A DNA stretch of 63,688 nucleotides, the filler included, from Reclinomonas americana ATCC 50394 (taxonomy: Eukaryota): NCBI GenBank assembly GCA_048213135.1. It is 14 parts of 14 records of this genome, joined end to end, with 100 filler letters (N's around TTAATTAATTAA, not from the genome) between each part and the next. Parts side by side here need not be neighbours in the genome. Positions count along the whole stretch, not along the records: positions 39,361 to 48,043 come from AFZH01020936.1; 13 more parts are not named here. The stretch is one strand, 5' to 3'. The position numbers and the translations under genes are program-made. Shown one piece after another: positions 4,077 through 61,496 of this stretch; the stretch's first letter is position 1, and every line of letters begins with the position of its first letter. A model generated the notes under the pieces. The model was not told the origin of the DNA, did no database searches, and worked only from the letters and a program-made list of their open reading frames with translations.

Positions 4077-4176
4077 NNNNNNNNNNNNNNNNNNNNNNNN
4101 NNNNNNNNNNNNNNNNNNNNTTAATTAATTAANNNNNNNNNNNNNNNNNNNNNNNNNNNNNNNNNNNNNNNNNNNN
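4077..4176. other. artificial contig linker (N44-TTAATTAATTAA-N44)
   Basis: Identical 100-nt spacers with stops in all six frames also at 18481, 20556, 21863, 23926, 30761, 37381, 39261, 48044, 53422, 55485, 58188 and 61397. Confidence 0.99.
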
Positions 4177-7200: not shown

Positions 7201-9029
7201 GATGACGCTGTAGCAAGTCGCCACCCTCCTCTTCGGTAGGTGCGGCGGCTGCTGATGCTGCATAGGCTGCGGCTGCGCCGTTCTCATGCGCCGCTGCGCC
7301 TGCGACACCTGCGCTGTCGGGGTTGTCCACGGCACCTTTCCGCTTCGTCGCATTCGTGACGGCGCCAACCAGTGCCGAAGTATCAAACATGCTCGTTAGA
7401 GCACCCTGATAGGTGGCGGCTGCCGCACGAAGTGGTCTAGCGGGCGGCTTGGCGGCAGCTCCATTTGCACCACCACCGCCACCTCCTGCTGCACTGTTGG
7501 CAGCAGACGGCCCACCCACACCCCCGGCACGGCCCGCACCCAGTGGCTCCGGCGTCGGCACACGCGCAAACGAGCTGTCGTCAGACTCTGTGTCGGGTGG
7601 CGTCGGTGGCGTCAGGAGATCAGGTGAGAGGGCAGCGGCCGAGTGGCCGTTGTGCGCCGATCGCGGCGCTCCATTGACACTGATGCCGGGCGGCATCAGG
7701 CGTTGTGAGTCCGTCAGCATGTGCAACTCGGTGGACATGCGCGAAAAGATCATTTTTGCATGCACGAGCTCGTAGTCCTGTTGTTGGTCAACGAAAGTAT
7801 GTGAGAGAGATGCGCGCGCGCGCACACACACACACACGGAGAGCGTGTGAGGTGAGTCGCACCGTCGACGCAGAACGCATGTGGGACAACCAGTGCGCCA
7901 TGTCGGCCAATCGTGCGCCAAACGCCGGTCCCAGGGTGAGTACACGTTGACCGAAGCGATCGGTGACACGCAGCTCGAGCTGCTTCTTATCACCACCCAT
8001 CGACGCCTGCTCCACCTTGCAGCCGTGCATGTGAATCAGTAGCTCCATTCCCGACTGTGACGAAGGGCGATTATTTAGTGAACACAACGCGCGTACATGC
8101 AAACTCGTGAACCCAAACGCAGCACCTCTACGTTGCGGTACACGCGGAATTCGGGGCCGCTAAGCACGCAGAACTTGGTCGAGTGTGCAGCTATGGTGCA
8201 CGAGCACACAGTCATGTGAGACGGACACACACACGGGGGAGAGCGAGAGAGAGAGAGAGAGGGTCGTTTCGACGCACTCTTGTCCATGAGGAAACCACAC
8301 TTGGAGATGGCGTACACCGGTCCATGACGATCGGCCTGCGACGGGGAGGGAATGGTGAGCCGGGGGGAGAGGCACGGCGAAAACAGCTGCAGACGCAACA
8401 TGCTCCTCGGCGACCTTCTTTCGAGCTTCGCGATCGTCGTCGCTCTCCACGCCCTGCACGATGCGAGAGAGGCGCAAGAGTGAGCACGGCGGCGATGACA
8501 CGAGCGGAGAGAGAGGGAGAGAAACAGCTGCGCACTCTTTGGTTGCTGCGAACGTGTGTGATCCACGATCGAATATTGTTGTCGTTCACCGAATCGCCGT
8601 CGTACAACACCCAGGCACCGTCGGGACCCTTGGCCAACATTGCAAACGCTCTCACCGTAGTCGGCATGATCGCCGACCCACGTAATCTAATCTGACCCAC
8701 CGCGGGCAGCTGCGATGTGTTGTGTGAGCGTGAGAGAAATGAGAGAGCCAGTCACACAACAAAAGACAGAACCTCAGGTGACGTGTGAAACCACAACATA
8801 TCATGAGCCAATACAATCCACACACGCTCGCCAGGCGTCATGGGCGTCGGCGTCGGTTCATCCTCATCGAATCCTGCACACACACAAACAGTCAATTTCT
8901 CTTCACTGTCACACACGCCACACACACACGCACACGCACGCAACTATGTACAAAGAGGTAGCCGGTCTTATCCGCATGCGCGTGAATGTGTGCTGGGTGT
9001 GGCGCGCCACCGAAACTCGGTGTCTTCAT
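4177..9029 (-). CDS. large protein with probable tandem N-terminal PH-like domains and a long Ser/Pro/Ala/Gln low-complexity tail; start uncertain, 3' partial
   Basis: Exons give DKTGYLFVH..RVWIVLAHDMLWFHTSPE..VGQIRLRGSAI..IRSWITHVRS and KCGFLMDK..KFCVLSGPEFRVYRN..LIHMHGCKV..DMAHWLSHMR, a PH-like strand and terminal-Trp helix pattern. Long ORFs follow at 6881-7996, 5211-6245 and 4129-5406. Confidence 0.55.
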
Positions 9030-9672
9030 TCCACTCTGTGTGTGAGAGAGTGTGAGTGTGAACGAAAATGAACCAAAAATCACAAACTCCGTCTGCGCGC
9101 GCCCAAACAAACACACACACACTCGCACACATGTACACACGCGCGACATATACAGCGGGGGCGTAGGTGGTGCGTGTGTGCGTGTGTGGGAAATGGCGTG
9201 ACAGTTCAACGACAAAGACGCGCACACAGACGGACCGAGAAGACAAGCGAGGCGCCATCGCCCTCCTCCTCATCACAATGACACTTGATCGAAATCAACG
9301 GTGGGTTATCGTCGTTTGGCGACGCCCGCACTGCTGATGCTCTCATCGCGAAACGGAAAAAACAGGCGGAAAAAGCGTGCCTCAATCACGCAAGAGAGTG
9401 AGAGTGAAAAGAAGCAGCAGAAGAGTGTGTGTCAATGCCAAAACAAGATTGAGAATTGCAGAAGCGTGCCACAACACCCCCACTCTCTCTCTCTCTCTCC
9501 CTCACACACGCTCCCTCACATGTCTCTCTGTGAAAACACGAACCATGCGCAAAGAGGCGCGACCTTCGCCATCGCCGCGCGACATCGTGGACAATAGACA
9601 GTGGACAGTGCTCTTGCCGCAATTGCATTCGTTTGTCCATGGCAAACACATTTCACACACGCAACGCAAAAA

Positions 9673-14611
<4,939 letters not shown>

Positions 14612-16409: not shown

Positions 16410-17855
16410 TCAGTCATCGCCGTCGCTGGCAGCACCGGAGCTGAGTTTCCTTCGCTTCCGAGGCACCTGCTCATCCCCGTCGTCGTCATCGGCATCACCG
16501 CCACGAGCTCCACGACTCTTCGACCGACCCGTGAACAGCTGTCGCGTGAACGCACAAGAACAATGAGCTACAGCGCGGGACAGCCAATCGATCGTCGCGC
16601 CCACCTTTTCAAGCAACTCGATGCTGGCTGGACCCTTTTGTCGCTTCTTGCTCTTCTTCGCACCGCTCGGGTTGCCGGGGAGCTTGATCTCGGCCGGCAG
16701 CACAATCGCCTCATCCGCACCAGCAGCAGCTGTCGCCTTTTTCGACGACGCCGCAACGCCATCCACGTCACTGACAATCGCCTTGAGCTGCCGGAACACG
16801 CGACGCACACGAGGCTTGCTGGTGACGCCAGTTTTCTCCGCCTGCCAAACCACCCGCGCACGATGAGTCGGCGAGCCAAGAACGCACACACAGGCTCGCG
16901 CATGCACACGCACTCTTCTCGCTTCCATGGCCTCCACGACCTTGGCCTGCGCCACTTGCTGCAGGTAGTCGTCGTGCTCTCGTCTCGCTGCCTCCACTTC
17001 ATGTCGCATCCGCTGGTCCTTGGCCGCCTGGTCTCGCGCTGTGCATGAGAGGGAGAGAGCGAGAGTGAGAACGGAGACAACTCGCCAGTCGCATGCTGAC
17101 GTCGGCCACTCACCCATGCTCTCCGTCAGGTGCTTCCACGTGAACTTGCGCAGGTACTTGAGGACCCACATGTCGTTGGCCCAGTGGCCGCGCTTCTCTG
17201 CTCACCGCAAACGCCGTCAGCAATGCACGGAGAGATGTCGCGAGAAGCACACCGTGAAACAGCGCACCGATGGGAGTGCCATTCAGAGTGCGCGCCACGG
17301 CCTTGGCCACTCGCTTGTCTGTGAACTCTACCCAACCCTCCTTGTACATGATCTGCGAACAAGCAGAGTGAGCAGGCACACACACGCACGCTCGTCGTCG
17401 TCGTGACATCACACTGCACCTTGCGATTACCACCGCGTTTTAACCGCTTCTCTCGTTCCCGCTGCGTCTCCGGTTCCAGGTACACTCGGTCGACGGTGCC
17501 AAACTCCTCCATTAGCCGCCTCACCTGCAGCAACAAGAAGGCGGTGAGGGCGCAGAGAGTGCTGATTCACATCACCACCGCCATGTACATCGCACACACA
17601 CGCGCGCGCGCCCACAGGAAACGGCGATTGCACGCGTGTGTGTGTGTGGAGAGAGAGAGCAGAGGCTGCTACACAGACACATGCACACGCTTGCAAGGCA
17701 GCCACAGTACCTTTGCTGGCGGAAAGAATGGTGGCAAGTGACCCTGTTTCCCGTGCACAAGCGCAGAGAGACAGAGATGAGGCGACTTGGAGAACACACT
17801 AGGTACATGAGCGCGAAGGGAACGCAACAACATAGACGATTCCGGGCTCGACCAT
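16410..17855 (-). CDS. ESF2: pre-rRNA processing protein ESF2/ABT1
   Basis: MVEPGIVYV|GHLPP..FGTVDRVYLEPE..YKEGWVEFTDKRVAKAVARTLNGTPIG..DMWVLKYLRKFTWKHLTE. Confidence 0.93.
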
Positions 17856-39360: not shown

Positions 39361-40848
39361 CTAATCGACAAGGAGACGTATGGATTTGTGATCATGGACG
39401 GGCACGGCGTGCTGTTTGCCACGGTGTGTGGCGCTCGCAAGACCGTGCTGCGTCACATGGGAGTCGACCTGCCATGCAAGCATCGACGAGTTGTGTATTT
39501 CCCTGTTGCGGGTTTGCGTCGCAGAGGAGGAGTGATGGCTGAGTCGATTGTGTGTGTGTGTGTGAGCGCAGGGTGGTCAGAGCTCGGTGCGCTTTGCTCG
39601 ACTGCGAATGATTGCCCGAGCCGCGTATGTACGTTCCCCCACCCCCTGTCATGCACACCAGCGTCAACGCTGCTGTGTGTAACTTACCTGTCCTCGCGTG
39701 CATGCAGGTGAAGCGAGCGGCGGAGATTGCGACCGAGTTGTTCCTTGCCAACAATCGAGTGACCGTGTCGGGCCTGGTGGTGGGTGGCTCGGCCGACCTC
39801 AAGGACGAGTTTGTGCAGTCCGACAGGTGGGTGCGCTGTGATCAACATTATTGCGGCCCTGCGAGTGTTCACTCACTGATGGGGGTGGCAGCTTGGATCC
39901 GCGAGTGGCGCGGACGATCTTGTGCAAGGTGGACACTGCGTACGGTGGCGAGAGTGGTCTGCACCAGGCGGTGGCACTTGCGGCGCCGCACCTGGGTCAC
40001 GTGGAGTACATTCGAGTGCGCGCCGAGCTCGACGAGTTCTTCTCGCACATTCAACGCGACACTGGCTGCATGTGCTTTGGCGTGCACGACACCATGGTTT
40101 GTCTCTTTTCTCCGTTGCTGCTATCATGCACTCCTCCCTCATTGTCGTGGAAATCGCGTCAGGCGGCCCTCATCGACATGGGCGCAGTAGAGAAGCTGCT
40201 GGTGTGGGAGTCGTCGCCTCTGTGGCGCCTTCAGCTGCAGACACACAGTGGTCCAGGTGCAGTATGTCTGTGTTAGCAGATGTCGTGGCTTCTCCCATCA
40301 ACATATTTGATTGAACCGCCGTCGCTCGTCAGTGGTGCGGTATGTTGTGCGCCGATCGACCGACGCGCAGCTGACGCTGGCGGCCGATGAGGTCGTGGAG
40401 GATATGCAGCCGCTTGTCGAGTGGCTGCTGGACCACGCGGCAAAGTCGTACGGATGCGAGGTTGTGACGATCACCGATGGTGAGTTTTCTCGTTCTTGTC
40501 CGACCTCGTTTGCCCATCTGACGTACCCCGGGTGTCGCAGCGTCACCACAAGGCACGCAGTTCACGCGAGGCTTTGGCGGCATTGGAGCGATTCTGCGGT
40601 ATGCTGTCGACGTGTCCAGTCTGCGCAACGGTGAGGGCGGTGGCGACGACGACGACGACAACGAAGACGACGACGATGACTGGGTTGGACGAGTGTGGAC
40701 CGATGACCTGGTTGACGACGACGACGACGATGCCGACGACGAAGGCAGCGATGTGGCAAATGGCGGAGTCGCCAGTGGCAGCAGCAGCGGCAGCAGCATC
40801 AAGAGCAACTCATCGACTCGATCTGCCGACTTGGACGACTTTATGTAA
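39361..40848 (+). CDS. divergent eukaryotic release factor 1 homologue (M and C domains; 5' partial)
   Basis: YGFVIMDG, VDLPCKHRR|GGQSSVRFARLR, GLVVGGSADLK, KVDTAYGGESGLHQA, MGAVEKLLVWE, LVEWL, QFTRGFGGIGAILRY. Confidence 0.88.
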
Positions 40849-40849
40849 A

Positions 40850-41686
40850 CTACAAGTGCGGTGCACGGCCCGCAAGGTCTGACGGCCTCATGGGCCGTTG
40901 CGGGCTGAATCGGTTGCCACCATGCGATGACTGTGATGGTGGTGGCGGTGGTGGCGGTGGTGGCGGTCGAGGCATCTCCGCTTGCATGTGTTGCATGTGA
41001 GCGACGAACTCGGCCTCCATGCGCTGCGCATCCCATCTCCCGCATGAGACAACTCCCTAAGTAAATCAGCACGTACATACTCCACCCACCTGCATGTGCT
41101 CCTCTTGCTGTCGGGCCACGGTCAGGTAATGATCGCGCTCAAACGTCATTGCCCGCAAGTCTGTTGCACAGACAGCGTGAGTCGCCTCGCTCCTTTCTCC
41201 TGCGTGTCCTCCCCCCTTACCATCCTCCAGCGCAGCAAACTCCTTGACGTGGATCTCGGCATTGCCCTTGAGGAACTGGTAGGCGCGCTCGAATGCCAGG
41301 CGATCCTTCTCAGCGCGCGCCTCATACTCGGCCACCACCCGCGCCAGCTCATCGCGCTCCTGTTCCACTTGTCGCAGCCGCTGTCGCCACTGCTCCACCT
41401 CGCGTATCATCGACTCCATCTGCTCGGGCTTGATCGCGTCGGCGACTGCGACCTGAAGCGAGCGCTTGTCGCTCAACAGCTGCTCGATGCGCATGTCTGC
41501 GCGCGCGCGCGTGTGTGTGTGAGAGAGAGCGAGACACCTGAGCAGTGCATGAACATGCAGGACGAGACACCACAGTGTGCCTTTGACTCGCAGCAGCTCT
41601 TCGTACTCGCTGATCACCAGCTCGGCCATTGCGATTGTGATTTGCAGAGACGGACAGCTGTGTCGGTGGTGCGTGACAACTTCCAT
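40850..41686 (-). CDS. hypothetical coiled-coil protein with Pro-rich tail (start at 41686 or 41629)
   Basis: Heptad-rich ORF 41066-41686, spliced to a last exon ending RAPHL-TAG. Confidence 0.55.
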
Positions 41687-41698
41687 CGTCTCGTTTAA

Positions 41699-42551
41699 TT
41701 ACAAGGTGGTATCGGAGAGCACGTGCTCCTCATACTCCTCACTCTCCTCACTGTACACGTCAAAGTTCCTGGTGACGACGCTGAAATCGACCTTGACCAC
41801 GCCACCTGATTGCACGCGCGTTACTTCGCGCCCTTCGCTCTTGCTCGGAAGCGTCGGATCGATAAAGTGCGGCGAGGAGCCGCTTAATGAGGACAACAGA
41901 CCCTGCAGCGCCGACGACGCCACCGGCTTGAACAGACGAATGTATCGCGTGTACCTGCAAAAAAAGAACGTGCGGCAATCAGCACTCCTTCCGCTCGCCC
42001 CTTTCTCCCCGCTAGTCGTGAAAGGAACCTTCCTGGACCGCATGGTACGTGGACAGCACCGTAGCCTTGCACAGTCTCCTTGCCCTTGCCTCCAATCGAG
42101 TACGTGGTTACACACAGCTGCGGCCACCCGTGCGGATTGGTGGAGCGAAACGAGATCTCAAACGGGAAGTTCCACACAAAGAGAGGTATGGCGCCGTTGC
42201 CGCCAAGCTCGCTGACTTGCGTGCACGACTCGCGAGGCACCACACGCTGCGCACATTGATGATGATGAGGAGCAGTTCGTTGTTGCAGGGGGGGTGTTTT
42301 TTTTTTGCTTGCGTCGCACCTCGCCATCACCGCGCTCAATCTCCCAGTTGGGTCCGTGCACAAACTGTAGTCGGCAGTACAACGAGCCGACGCCATCCAT
42401 CTGCGCAACAAGGGTGAGAGAGAGCAAAGGGGAGGGAGGAGGAGAGACAACAACATCAGCATACCTGCGCGCTCTCCACTTGGCCGTTGACGGTGACAAA
42501 GAAGGCGCTGGAGGAGGCCGAGGAGAGCGAGGAGGGGCCTGACTTCAGCAT
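41699..42551 (-). CDS. B9D1: ciliary transition-zone B9 domain protein 1 (MKSR1)
   Basis: FFVTVNGQVESAQ..LYCRLQFVHG..VWNFPFEISFRSTNPHGWPQL..GYGAVHVP..EGREVTRVQSGG, B9D1-type motifs. Confidence 0.93.
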
Positions 42552-42614
42552 TGTGTGGGAGCGAGAGGATGGACGTGGACAGAGCTCGCTTCGTTGCAAT
42601 CAATCACCGCCCAA

Positions 42615-45186
42615 ATGTCACGCGCTCGAGTGCGCGTGGCTCTCGTCGTCGAGGCCTCTGCCGAGGCCGTCGAGCTGTGCACAGACAAGGACTTTCTCCC
42701 CACACTGCTCAAGTCTCGTGTTGCATGCGAGTGTGTGTCTCGTGCGCTCTCTCTCACACACGCACGTGCACACAGACGATTCGCCAGTGCGCCAACGCAA
42801 GAAAAGTCCACGGTCTGTGACACATACAGAGTGTTCTCTTGCTCGAGAGCTGTCACTTGCTGAGCTTCTTGTCTGGCACGCAGCATGCGGTCGAGTTCTG
42901 CGTGATTGCATTCTCCAGCAGTCCACCGTTTGGCACGTTTGCAAGTGGTGGCACTGTGCGACAGTTCCCCGTGAGGCCGCACGTGGAGGGAGTGTTGCGT
43001 GCACTGCAGTCGGACTGCTTCAGTCCACACGAGGCCAGTCTGTGGAGGTTCGACTTGTCTCCTGTCAGAGACTGAATTGTTGATTTCTTCTCACGACGGA
43101 GTCGATGCAGTGAGGCGGCGGTGGCCGACGGACTTGGTGTGGCCATGGAGGTGCTGTATATTTGTGTCTCGCACCTTTTGTCTTTCTTGCCATCCCACTG
43201 CGTCTCATCATGCTCCGGCATGCAGTGGCTCCTGTTGCACCATGACATGTCGATATTGCGGCATTGTGTGCTGGTGACCTCGTCGGCCGCCAGTGCGCTG
43301 CCCAACATGGAATCCGTCGAGTTCTTTGGCAGATCTGTCGACGATCTTGTGCAGCTCATGTCCGATGTATGTGTGTCGTCGCTGCACCCGTGTCGCCACA
43401 CCCGATTGCTCACACGTGCGCTTTGGTGAGTGCAGGCGCATCGAGAGGTGTTTCTGTCGGTGATATGTACGCGCGACCATGTGCCAGAGTATGAGCGACT
43501 CTTTATGGTACGTGGTCCACAGCGCGTGGGTGGAGTCGAGTCTCGTTGTCCTCCTGACGATTTTCATTGCCTGTGCATCCAGTCGGCGTCGCAACGGCAC
43601 GATCACGGAGTGGAACATGTGGATCTTGCACGGGGTACTGCGTGGCTGCGCAACGTGCCACACTTGATGGCGGCACCGGTGGTGGCCACCATGCCGACAC
43701 CGCCTCTTCCCGCTCATGCGGCTCCCACGCCCATGGCCGTCGACAGCTCCTCGTACGTGTCTCCCATGCAAGCGATTCCGCAGCAGCCGCCACAGCCGCC
43801 ACAGCCGCAGCCACCGCAGCAACTGGCGGCACCAGCTGTTCCGCAGTACGGTGTGCTTCCGCAGCCACCCATGCAGCATCTACCACAGCCACAGGCACCA
43901 CAACCGCCAACACCACCACAGCCGCCACCGCTGCACATGAATGTTGCGAGCGAAGAAGTTGAATTTGTGGCGTAGTCATGTGCCGGGTTCATTTATTTGG
44001 CGTGTGTGTGCGTGTGTGTCTGCGTACAGGCGTCGGCAACGGGTCCCATCTGGGATGGAACTGTGCGAGTGGATTCGCTGTCCATCCCGGGTCAAATCTA
44101 CGCCGGCACTCTGCCTGAGATTGGGTCGCCCGAGGGCAAGCGATTCTAGTTATGGCGACACGCAGATGCCTGGCTTTTGTACTCTCTGTCTGTCTTGCTG
44201 ACGACTAGTGCGTCTCTCCCAGTTCGTGGTCACACGAAAAGATTCAGCAGTTGCCCACCAGCGTGGCGTTTACGCTTGCACCGTTGACGGTGCCAGTGCA
44301 GCAGCTGCCGCCGATTGTGGTGGGTGTATTCCGCCCGAGTCAGATCACCAACGAGTTCTTGAGTTTGCTGAGCCAGCTCAGTGGGTCGCCCAAAAAGGTG
44401 CTTGTCGATTGCGCGTGTGGGAATGGTGGCTGTGCTCAACGACGCGCTTGTGCTGCAGTACCTGTTGGGCAACATTCCGCTGGCCGCAGCCAATGGAACC
44501 GTCTACGTGTGTCTCATGTCGACGGCACCGTTGTTGCCGCCGGGGCAGCGTTTTCGCGAAGAGCAATGGTGTGTGACGACGATTGATGCACACTCTCACT
44601 GCAGTCTCCCTTTGTGGTTGACCGCGTTGCCAGGTTGTACGTCGGCTCGCTGCAGGGTGCACAACAGTCACCCGCTGTGCCTCCCGCCAGCACCGCCACC
44701 CCGACACAACCGGTGCCGGTTGCCTCGTCGCCGTACCTCCAGCAGCCTGTGGCACAGCCGCAGACCACCACACCACAGATGCAACCGGTTCACGCCATGC
44801 CAGCTGGCTACGCCGCTGCTGCACGGCAACCCACCGGCGCTGTTCCACAGTTCTCATCGCCGCCCGTGGTGAGCGGGCAGTCGCCGATGGATCCACAGCA
44901 GCAAGCCGCCATGCAACAGTACTACTATCAGCACACATTGATGCAGCAGCAGCAACAACAGCAACAACAACAACAACAACAACAACAACAGCAACATCAA
45001 CAACACTACCAACACCAGCAGCCGCCGCAGCAGCAGCAGCAACAGCCACCACCACAACCGCCACAGCAACAGCTACCCGCTGGGGCTCCCGCACAGGTAC
45101 CAGTCGCCGCAGCCCCTCAATACTACACCGGCGCCTACGGGTATCCCCCAGCACCGGGCTACGGATACCCACAGCCACCACAATAA
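42615..45186 (+). CDS. Mediator subunit 25-like (vWA domain, possible ACID domain, Q/P-rich tail)
   Basis: VALVVEAS..FLPTL, AVADGLGVAMEVL, RHCVLVTSS, SVDDLV..VFLSVIC..YERLF resemble the MED25 vWA domain; later IWDGTV and polyQ. Some exon junctions are unresolved. Confidence 0.6.
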
Positions 45187-45341
45187 ACGCGAAACAGACA
45201 AGAGCGACTGCCCGTACGTACGCATGTGTGTTAAGTCTAGGCGCGCAAGTTTACAAGAGGGAAAAAACATAGAAAGAGATACCACGGAGGAGAGGAGAAG
45301 CAAGTTGAGAAACATAACAACAATCGTCATCAGTCGTCGTG

Positions 45342-45956
45342 TCATTCGTCCCGTATGCTGCCGCCCAGTTCAGGGTGACGTGCTTCATCCACCAATGCGC
45401 GCAACAGATCCTCACTGTGCGTGTGCACGTGCACGAGTGAGAAACGGAGAACAGCATCAGCAGCCAACAGCCAAAAAAACGACAAGTCCGCACCAACGCT
45501 GCTGATTCTCGGCGACCGAGTCGCACTCTGTCGCCGTAATCGTAATGGTATCCGTGCGTGCATTGTAACGCGAGCCGAGCAGGCCAATCAGCTTGGATCG
45601 CTGCGGCGGTGTGAGGTCAATGTCGTTGGCCTTCAGCTGCGCCACCACCTTCTTCTCGTGCGGATGCCGTGCGCTCGCCGTGTCATAGAACGGGTACTGC
45701 GCGGCAATGAACTCCACTGCCACCGCTGTTGTGCGTAGATGCAGGCGAGTGTGAGTGAGTGCGTGTGTGAAACAGAGGTGGTTGGTGACATGTTGCACAC
45801 ACACACGCAACGACGACGCATTGCGGCGGCGGCTGCGGCGGCGTGCGACATGGGTCGTGTTGCAGCACACAGTGCCCACATGGATGACAGAGGACGAGTT
45901 GACGTCGTCGATGAGGGGGAGAGCGAGGCAGCGAGACGGCCCAGGCGCAGCAGCAT
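45342..45956 (-). CDS. mitochondrial ribosomal protein mS35 (MRPS35/Rsm24)-like
   Basis: Arg/Ser/Ala presequence, then HPHEKKVV..LTPPQRSKLIGLLGSRYNARTDTITI..ENQQR..DLLRALVDEA. Confidence 0.75.
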
Positions 45957-46063
45957 CTTTTGTGCGTGAATCAGAAGCCAAAAAACCGGGCATGGACAGT
46001 GCGAGTGCGATTGGCCAGCACACTGTCCCTTCACTTCATTATTTTTCACTCCCCCACACTGGA

Positions 46064-47099
46064 ATGCCGCCTGCTCAGCAGAAGAAGTCGGTGCGTTGAT
46101 GGTGGCGTAGTAGAGTGTGGTGCTGTGCGATGCTGTGTGGGAGTCGTCAGCGTGTGAGGAAGAGGGGGAGAAGAAGGGGGCGTGCATGTCGATGGCGCAT
46201 GTGCACTTGCATGCCTCGCCACTCGGCCGTTCTTCAGCTATGCGTCTGTGTGCGTGTGTGTGTCTGCGTGTGTGTGATAATGCGCTTGTGTGTTTCGTTG
46301 TGTGTTCTGTGACTGCTTGTGCTCGGAGAAGGACGAGACCGCAAGTGGTTCTTCGCTGTTCTCTCTTGTGCCGTTCTCTCTCTCTCTCCCTGTGTGTGTA
46401 TGCGCTCCCCACGCACAGGCGCGCACAGCGTGATGTCGTAAAAGCCACAGTGGAGAGAGAGCCATGAAAAGAGAGAGGGACTCCACCATGGCCGACATGG
46501 TCACGCTCCTTTTCTCTCTCTCCTCTCCTTGTCAGCACCACCTCCCTTCTCGCACGCATGTGTATATGCGCATATTCCATTGTATCACCACGGGCATCTC
46601 TACTCACACTGGTTTGTCATTTCTTTTTCGACGAGCGCAGAAGAAGGCTCTTGAGGGCGTGAACGCCCGCCTCAACCTGGTCATGAAGTCCGGCAAGTAC
46701 GTGCTCGGCGTCAAGGAGACCATCCGCAACATGCGCAACGGCAAGGCCAAGATGGTGATTGTGTCGGAGAACACACCACCTCTGCGCCGCTCCCAGATCG
46801 AGTACCTGGCGTACCTGGCACACGTCACTGTGTTGCACTATGCTGGCAGTTGCGCACACACTCTCCATCTTCTGTGTGTGCACCACTCCCTCCTGTGCTA
46901 TGTGCTCATCCACCCCGCAAACGCACAGACAACATTGACTTGGGAACTGCATGCGGCAAGTACTTCCGCGTGGGCGTGCTCGCCATCACCGATGCTGGTG
47001 CGTCGTCTCTTCCCTTGTGCATGTGAGTAGCAAGCAGCGCATCGTTGGCTCACTGTGTTTTCGCACACCACAGGTGACTCTGACATCCTCACGATGTAA
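46064..47099 (+). CDS. RPL30: 60S ribosomal protein eL30, 4 exons
   Basis: [75 protein letters not shown]. Introns 46091-46640, 46849-46928 and 46998-47073. Confidence 0.97.
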
Positions 47100-47545: not shown

Positions 47546-47798
47546 ATAAGCCAAGGTGCGTGCATTTGCATGACTCACGCCACGCCGCAATTCTCCGATC
47601 TGAGGTGATGCACAACTGTGTGTGTGTTTGTCTCCGCCGCAGATCAAAGAGTAAGGAAACAGACTCTCGTGGATTGACCTCCCGAGTTTCCCTTGCGGGA
47701 AATAGTACCCAATTTTTGCGGGGGAGCGAAAGGCGGGCCTCGCTGGAAGCCCTTTGCCTTACACTCAGGCAGGGTGCCGCCTGGCTAGCCTCTCCCCC
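47546..47798 (+). ncRNA. U12-like (minor spliceosomal) snRNA, apparently containing a GT-AG intron at 47556-47642
   Basis: In U12 order: GAGTAAGGAAA branch-recognition motif (47649-47659), SLIIa CTCG-TGGA-TTGACC-TCC-CGAG, SLIIb TTTCCC-TTGC-GGGAAA, Sm site AATTTTTG (47711-47718), and a long 3' stem-loop (GGGGGAG/CTCCCCC, AGGCGG/CCGCCT, TGCCT-TACACTC-AGGCA). The 5' end is inferred. Confidence 0.75.
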
Positions 47799-48143
47799 TC
47801 GACCCAAGTGGATGATGAAAGCGAAGAAATAATGTGAGGGGAGTGCGTGAGGGGTGAGGTGGGGAAGAGCGCGTGTCGGCGGCCGCATCTCGCTTGCCTG
47901 TGCATCACCATGCGATGACGTGATTGCATTGGGCGATGGTGTAACGGTCATTGCAAAGCGCGCGCTCAACTTTGGCGTGCCATCTCTTTCTCCCGTGAGA
48001 ACGACACGTGCACATGCGCGCATGCACGCTCACCAAGGAGCGTNNNNNNNNNNNNNNNNNNNNNNNNNNNNNNNNNNNNNNNNNNNNTTAATTAATTAAN
48101 NNNNNNNNNNNNNNNNNNNNNNNNNNNNNNNNNNNNNNNNNNN

Positions 48144-61382: not shown

Positions 61383-61496
61383 GGCAGCCAGTAACANNNN
61401 NNNNNNNNNNNNNNNNNNNNNNNNNNNNNNNNNNNNNNNNTTAATTAATTAANNNNNNNNNNNNNNNNNNNNNNNNNNNNNNNNNNNNNNNNNNNN

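Follow-up and report, generated by a model that had tools for sequence, protein, structure and literature searches.

The U12 snRNA of the minor spliceosome is described as pairing through its GUAAGGA sequence with the branch site of U12-type introns and through its 5′ arm with U6atac, while its stem-loop III binds the 65K/p65 protein (PMC3201867). In the comparison given there, the 5′ arm is almost identical in 17 species of animals, plants and fungi. For some protists a different picture has been drawn: the available part of a survey lists no minor introns in Discoba (PMC10639083), and diplonemid studies, as far as their available text goes, report no U12-type snRNAs (PMC10161547, PMC12621601), the second of them having applied the Rfam gathering cut-off when reporting only U2-type snRNAs. 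These accounts are relevant here if the lineage under study is discobid. The original prediction for the locus described below was that of a U12-like snRNA gene interrupted by a spliceosomal intron in its U6atac-pairing arm. It pointed to introns in fungal snRNA genes, which are indeed documented for U1, U2, U5 and U6 (PMC5855946, PMC2396436), and held that no such case was known for U12. The latter statement fits the literature searched, in whose main texts no U12 gene with an intron was found, a result that also keeps the prior for an intron in this gene low.

The locus belongs to a contig at 39361-48043 of the window, i.e., the whole stretch of 63,688 bases that was analysed, and lies 245 nt from the end of that contig. 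The window is built of 14 short contigs (~1.2-14 kb) and 13 linkers of the form N44-TTAATTAATTAA-N44 (the first at 4077-4176, the last at 61397-61496), therefore features cannot be followed from one contig to the next. Upstream of the locus and on the same strand, exons 2-4 of RPL30 (46632-47098, +) were located by tblastn with RPL30 homologues, their stop codon ending at 47098. The U12-like RNA itself, as matched by the Rfam model RF00007 and by a model built in this work (R1, described below), occupies 47634-47798 (+), with a 5′ end that may lie anywhere within 47634-47641 and a 3′ end near 47798. It begins with a divergent 5′ arm, GCCGCAGAUCAAA (47636-47648, +), that both models align to GCCUuAAACUAAU and that is, by its position in the alignment, the counterpart of U12 nucleotides 3-15, the helix I segment that pairs with U6atac. 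Directly after it comes the branch-site recognition sequence GAGUAAGGAAA (DNA GAGTAAGGAAA; 47649-47659, +), which agrees letter for letter with G16-A26, a run of columns invariant among the aligned U12 genes. Stem-loop IIa with its UUGAC loop (~47666-47686, +) is in the Rfam alignment a stem of 8 pairs, one of them non-canonical, and stem-loop IIb (47687-47702, +), aligned to the corresponding part of the model, reads directly as a perfect 6-bp hairpin, UUUCCC/UUGC/GGGAAA. The Sm site AAUUUUUG (DNA AATTTTTG; 47711-47718, +) is placed by both models on the model's own AAUUUUUG, and the RNA closes with a long 3′ stem-loop III (47720-47798, +; predicted fold -45 kcal/mol) that carries the apical loop UACACUC (47760-47766, +). 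On the upstream side are found the ten letters of the putative exon 1, AUAAGCCAAG (= ATAAGCCAAG; 47546-47555, +), and an intron-like segment of 87 nt (47556-47642, +) that opens with GTGCGT (47556-47561) and ends with CCGCAG at 47642. Thus all motifs listed in the original prediction are present, and so is the reported lack of a convincing ORF, as none of the three ORFs overlapping the locus has a Pfam match. About 10 nt past the predicted 3′ end, at 47808-47827 (+), a C-box-like GUGGAUGAUGA is followed by a purine-rich stretch, and Rfam sR36 matches there weakly (9.9 bits, E 9.9); the element may be a signal of 3′-end formation, or nothing.

The match to RF00007 covers 47634-47787 (+) and model positions 1-151 with 25.6 bits, which corresponds to an E-value of 0.0061 for a search of 741 nt and of 0.52 when the whole window and 4227 families are taken into account. 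Since this is less than half of the gathering score of the family (53 bits), the match is seen only with E-value reporting, and at gathering scores Rfam gives zero matches in the whole window. Taken alone the match is marginal: a full-length alignment to the U12 covariance model was obtained, but with a score below the gathering threshold. Contigs from metagenomes were therefore scanned for the two strongest U12 words at their spacing, GAGTAAGGAAA-N36-66-AATTTTTG, which gave at least 119 loci. Rfam was run on 14 of the 119 loci listed, and ten true U12 genes were recognised among them with scores of 43.9-119.5 bits (nine at 79-120 bits and one, L037, at 43.9). A covariance model, R1, was then constructed from nine non-identical metagenomic U12 genes with the candidate left out; because the structure derived by RNAalifold was poor (23 pairs), R1 is mostly a sequence profile. 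Its sole match in the 63,688 bases is 47634-47799 (+), at model positions 1-149, with 26.2 bits and a rough E-value of 1.6e-4. None of the 109 decoys that contain the same two words reached the candidate (the best scored 19.5, 16.8, 15.5 and 15.3 bits), and RF00007 gave no U12 match at E<=10 on any of 20 decoys. As decoys with both words score lower, the score of the candidate is not due to these words alone; it is raised also by the hairpins and by the G-rich start of stem-loop III. Near the top of that stem-loop, GCCUUAC is aligned by MAFFT with GCCUUAC of another true U12 gene, L116.

The same data leave some room for a different view, namely that U12-like motifs have come together by chance in intergenic DNA rich in GC, or that the locus is a decayed U12 pseudogene whose lineage has no functional minor spliceosome. 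The low Rfam score and the window-wide E-value would fit such an origin. So would the divergent helix-I arm and the missing stem-loop I, for which the Rfam alignment marks 2 of the 5 model pairs as non-canonical. In stem-loop III, 8 of the 24 pairs are non-canonical in the register of the model, and the loop UACACUC departs from the consensus UACUUU. The z-scores of the predicted folds at the locus are modest (-1.94 and -2.29), the second being that of stem-loop III at 47720-47798, which 6 of 200 shuffled sequences matched in folding energy. The 11-mer GAGTAAGGAAA occurs a single time in the window, even when one mismatch is allowed, where 0.20 occurrences are expected; with one mismatch allowed, at least one match was present in 17 of 100 shuffles. 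The 63.7 kb contain no other minor-spliceosome component, no other minor snRNA and no U12-type intron, a size too small to be informative: none of the seven RTATCCYY sites has a branch motif downstream, and of five TCCTTGAC sites the one that was placed (46717, minus strand) is antisense of RPL30 coding sequence. The survey with no minor introns listed for Discoba, mentioned above, points the same way, as the DNA polymerase delta of the window groups with a jakobid sequence. Against this stands the agreement of two models on one full-length match, together with the decoy control, in which no motif-matched sequence came within 6 bits of the candidate. Moreover, the exact 11-mer and the Sm site at the right spacing are expected by chance about 3e-6 times per window (an arithmetic estimate from base frequencies), and hairpins IIa, IIb and III have kept both their integrity and their order, something not required of a decayed copy. 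We therefore regard the chance or pseudogene origin as improbable. Judged by its sequence, the locus is very probably a real but divergent U12 homologue: the branch-recognition sequence, stem-loops IIa and IIb and the Sm site are all those of the U12 family, and the U12-like snRNA gene of the original prediction finds support in two covariance models, in the decoys and in the order of its hallmarks.

The part in which the candidate departs from the family is the 5′ arm (U12 nucleotides 1-13), where the conserved sequence is not present: of the first 15 positions 7 agree, i.e., GCC and four A residues. G3, C4 and C5 are nevertheless kept, G3 and C4 being invariant in all nine U12 genes. Because the arm departs from a sequence that is nearly identical among U12 RNAs, a working RNA would require a U6atac that has co-varied with it. 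The GAUCAAA arm was seen in none of the ten true U12 genes among the 119 loci listed, and close orthologues, searched for as the helix arm together with the branch sequence and the Sm site, numbered 0 in metagenome contigs and 0 in viral contigs; one match to the strict pattern in a Prevotellaceae MAG was dismissed as a chance match.

One may ask whether the divergence of the arm would disappear if the 87-nt segment was removed. According to the original prediction, it is a U2-type intron (47556-47642) that interrupts the U12 gene; transcription would start near 47546 and the major spliceosome would join AUAAGCCAAG to AUCAAAGAGUAAGG, giving a mature RNA of about 166 nt. Exon 1 would in this case supply a GCC two bases before GAUC. 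However, the unspliced sequence is aligned over its full length by both covariance models, which put GCC at positions 3-5, so the sequence has GCC in the exact canonical register already without splicing, which bears out the caveat of the original prediction that an intron-less reading places GCC at a U12-like spacing. Identity to the nine-gene consensus in the 15 nt before GAGUAAGG is 7/15 for the unspliced sequence, compared with 5/15 for the spliced one when ungapped, or 7/15 if the alignment is given a gap of one base and two additional bases at the 5′ end. The comparison of spliced and unspliced forms was made with a profile HMM on the in-silico join, as a substitute for the Rfam covariance model, and showed no gain from splicing: nhmmer with the nine-gene profile scores the unspliced sequence at 18.9 (18.7 without context) and the spliced one at 18.2, and the alignments of both forms all start at profile position 13. 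A canonical 5′ exon, ATGCCTTAAACTAAT, has no match with up to three mismatches elsewhere in the window. A pyrimidine run directly before GCC, which had been read as a polypyrimidine tract, precedes GCC in four true U12 genes too (L049, L085, L088 and L116).

The segment was further compared with 17 introns verified in the window, of which 15 belong to the DNA polymerase delta gene and 2 to RPL30 (46849-46928 and 46998-47073). The former were obtained by spliced alignment of a homologue to the region 10.3-14.6 kb, which gave 15 well-supported GT-AG introns; a 16th junction (12664) was dropped on account of its negative alignment score. The catalytic subunit gene of DNA polymerase delta (10404-14532, +) contains at least 15 GT-AG introns of 58-72 nt, and further junctions are present at ~12460-12770. 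Within its intron 13353-13415, the octamer ATATCCTC (13368-13375, +) resembles a U12-type 5′ splice site, a coincidence because the alignment of the conserved protein removes the whole 63 nt. The 17 introns are 58-80 nt long, their acceptors are mostly (C/T)GCAG, and their donors fall mainly into two classes, GTGCGT/GTGCGA (6) and GTTGCG (6), the latter an unusual class seen in the polymerase introns beside GTGCGT; the literature on these two donor words offered nothing relevant. YTSAY with its A at 12-22 nt from the 3′ end occurs in 11 of the 17, and the other six have, by eye, a looser YTNA in the same zone.

It had been claimed that the 87-nt segment is indistinguishable from such introns. 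This holds for its ends: with matrices from the 17 introns, the donor G|GTGCGT reaches 6.9 (verified introns, scored leave-one-out: -0.1 to 7.6), among the three best values, and the acceptor CCGCAG| reaches 7.3 (1.8 to 9.6). It does not hold for the length, as the segment is longer than every one of the 17 introns, nor for the branch site, as its only YTSAY lies 65 nt and its nearest adenosine 27 nt from the 3′ end. Both atypical properties weigh against an intron. On the other hand, the longest GT run is 10 nt in the segment and 0-8 nt in the verified introns, and a (GT)n expansion in a real intron could account for the extra length and the branch distance together. The splice-site look by itself is weak evidence, since first-order Markov sequence of the size of the window contains on average 17.6 donor-acceptor pairs of such strength at a distance of 55-95 nt, compared with 28 in the real window; splice-site matrices were for this reason rejected as a discriminator. 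From the Markov pair density, the chance that a pair of this kind has its end so close to the branch-recognition arm, only a few bases away, was estimated at roughly one in a thousand.

In favour of the intron one may add to the donor and acceptor scores that exon 1 ends with AAG, as at many real junctions, that the proposed acceptor is the first AG past the last adenosines, that the host is very intron-rich, with its polymerase gene as an example, and that fungi provide documented precedents. These precedents, as described in the accessible parts of the reports, have the intron within conserved snRNA sequence, whereas here splicing neither restores the conserved U12 5′ sequence nor raises the profile score. 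Besides, by our reasoning, a minor-spliceosome RNA that gained its intron through reverse splicing should contain one of U12 type, not of U2 type. The evidence for an intron consists at present of splice-site look-alikes. When this coincidence is set against the canonical GCC register, the lack of gain from splicing, an architecture atypical of the host's introns and the fact that introns are rare in snRNA genes, the U6atac-pairing arm appears unlikely to be interrupted by a spliceosomal intron, and this part of the original prediction is not borne out.

The reading that we consider likely, from the sequence in hand, is that of an intron-less, sequence-divergent U12 snRNA gene of about 160-165 nt at ~47634-47798 (+). 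The sequence can be explained without the proposed intron, whose likeness to an intron is more probably a chance property of promoter DNA. In such a gene the 87-nt segment would comprise promoter-proximal DNA and the first 7-9 nt of the RNA, and GTGCGT and the pyrimidine-CAG would be chance resemblances, these words being common in the genome. The U12-like RNA would assemble into an Sm snRNP, its GUAAGGA would pair with the branch site of U12-type introns, as in the rest of the family, and its unusual 5′ arm (GCC...GAUCAAA) would pair with U6atac. Some observations run against the intron-less gene: the donor G|GTGCGT belongs to the commonest donor class (6/17) and the acceptor is good, and exon 1, too, would supply GCC at a plausible spacing. 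Before neither candidate start was a TATA-like or other recognisable promoter element found. The motifs TTTGCAT and TGACTC, common to the candidate and to L037, were dropped as promoter motifs, as their distances differ.

The host is an intron-rich flagellate. Contigs of the window carry a B9 ciliary-protein domain, Med25, a TFIIB repeat, a proteasome alpha subunit, MRP-S28 and DNA polymerase delta, and several of these lie on the contig of the U12-like locus (39842-46035), with exons matching eRF1 domain 3, a B9-C2 ciliary protein (-), the Med25 VWA domain (+) and the mitochondrial ribosomal protein MRP-S28 (-; 45460-46035). For the RPL30 exon the best named matches have 62% identity, and relatives on short contigs have 84% and 77-79%. 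In a tree of DNA polymerase delta, a single-gene analysis of 33 rows assembled without SAR, Euglenozoa and metamonads, the sequence of the window groups with Andalucia godoyi and two further rows (SH-aLRT 97); A. godoyi is described as intron-poor in the available text of PMC7050145, so the host is a different species. Comparison with a protein atlas placed it no more closely than Eukaryota. Weak Rfam mir-3149 matches were also noted at 8924-9191 and 17592-17647, on both strands, scoring 25.8-37.4 bits where the gathering score is 100.

If the U12 gene is real, the lineage retains a minor spliceosome, and the tree places this lineage, though weakly and from a single gene, nearest to a jakobid sequence. 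A natural variant of the 5′ arm predicts compensating changes in U6atac and would thus offer a free covariation test of helix I. With 25.6 bits, compared with a threshold of 53, the gene escapes any search run at the gathering cut-off of Rfam, and the cut-off stated in the available text of PMC12621601 would miss it; reported absences of minor snRNAs in deep protist lineages deserve to be rechecked at lower thresholds with decoy controls. Were the intron true, it would be a more striking result than a divergent U12 gene: assembly of the minor spliceosome would have to wait until the major one had spliced U12, so that one splicing system would depend directly on the other. No intron is known so far in an RNA of the minor spliceosome, so this would be the first, and the 5′ exon of the gene would be hidden from standard searches.

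Among known systems, the proposed GT-AG intron in a functional snRNA arm resembles those of fission-yeast U6 and of U1, U2 and U5 of Rhodotorula hasegawae (PMC5855946, PMC2396436, as far as their accessible text describes them). It differs from them in that the removal of the 87-nt segment rebuilds no conserved sequence, in that the host RNA is one of the minor spliceosome carrying a major-type intron, and in that the candidate is known from DNA alone. Another parallel is offered by the metagenomic L037, whose U12 gene (327-471, +) is likewise below the gathering score with 43.9 bits; its arm GUGCUUCUA stands before GAGUAAGG and lacks 6 nt in comparison with every other U12 gene examined. The gene has no TATA-like element upstream and is another divergent protist-type U12. 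Both genes combine a 5′ arm that deviates from the consensus with a preserved branch-recognition sequence, Sm site and set of stem-loops, but L037 retains GUGC in an arm that is 6 nt short, whereas the candidate retains the full length with changed letters. Since the upstream regions and the 5′ arms are unlike, the two are not close relatives; L037 shows, as far as its sequence tells, that nature does contain U12 genes that score below the threshold and have an odd 5′ arm. With the U12 family as a whole (RF00007), the locus shares the exact GAGUAAGGAAA, stem-loops IIa and IIb, the Sm site AAUUUUUG with a G-run after it, and a long 3′ stem-loop whose 7-nt loop contains UAC, and the order, spacing and total length of these parts are equal. 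It differs from the family in the first 15 nt, near-invariant elsewhere and matched here at 7 positions, in the lack of stem-loop I, in the score (25.6 vs. 53 bits) and in the loop of stem-loop III, whose consensus UACUUU is given as the site of the p65 protein in the consulted part of PMC3201867.
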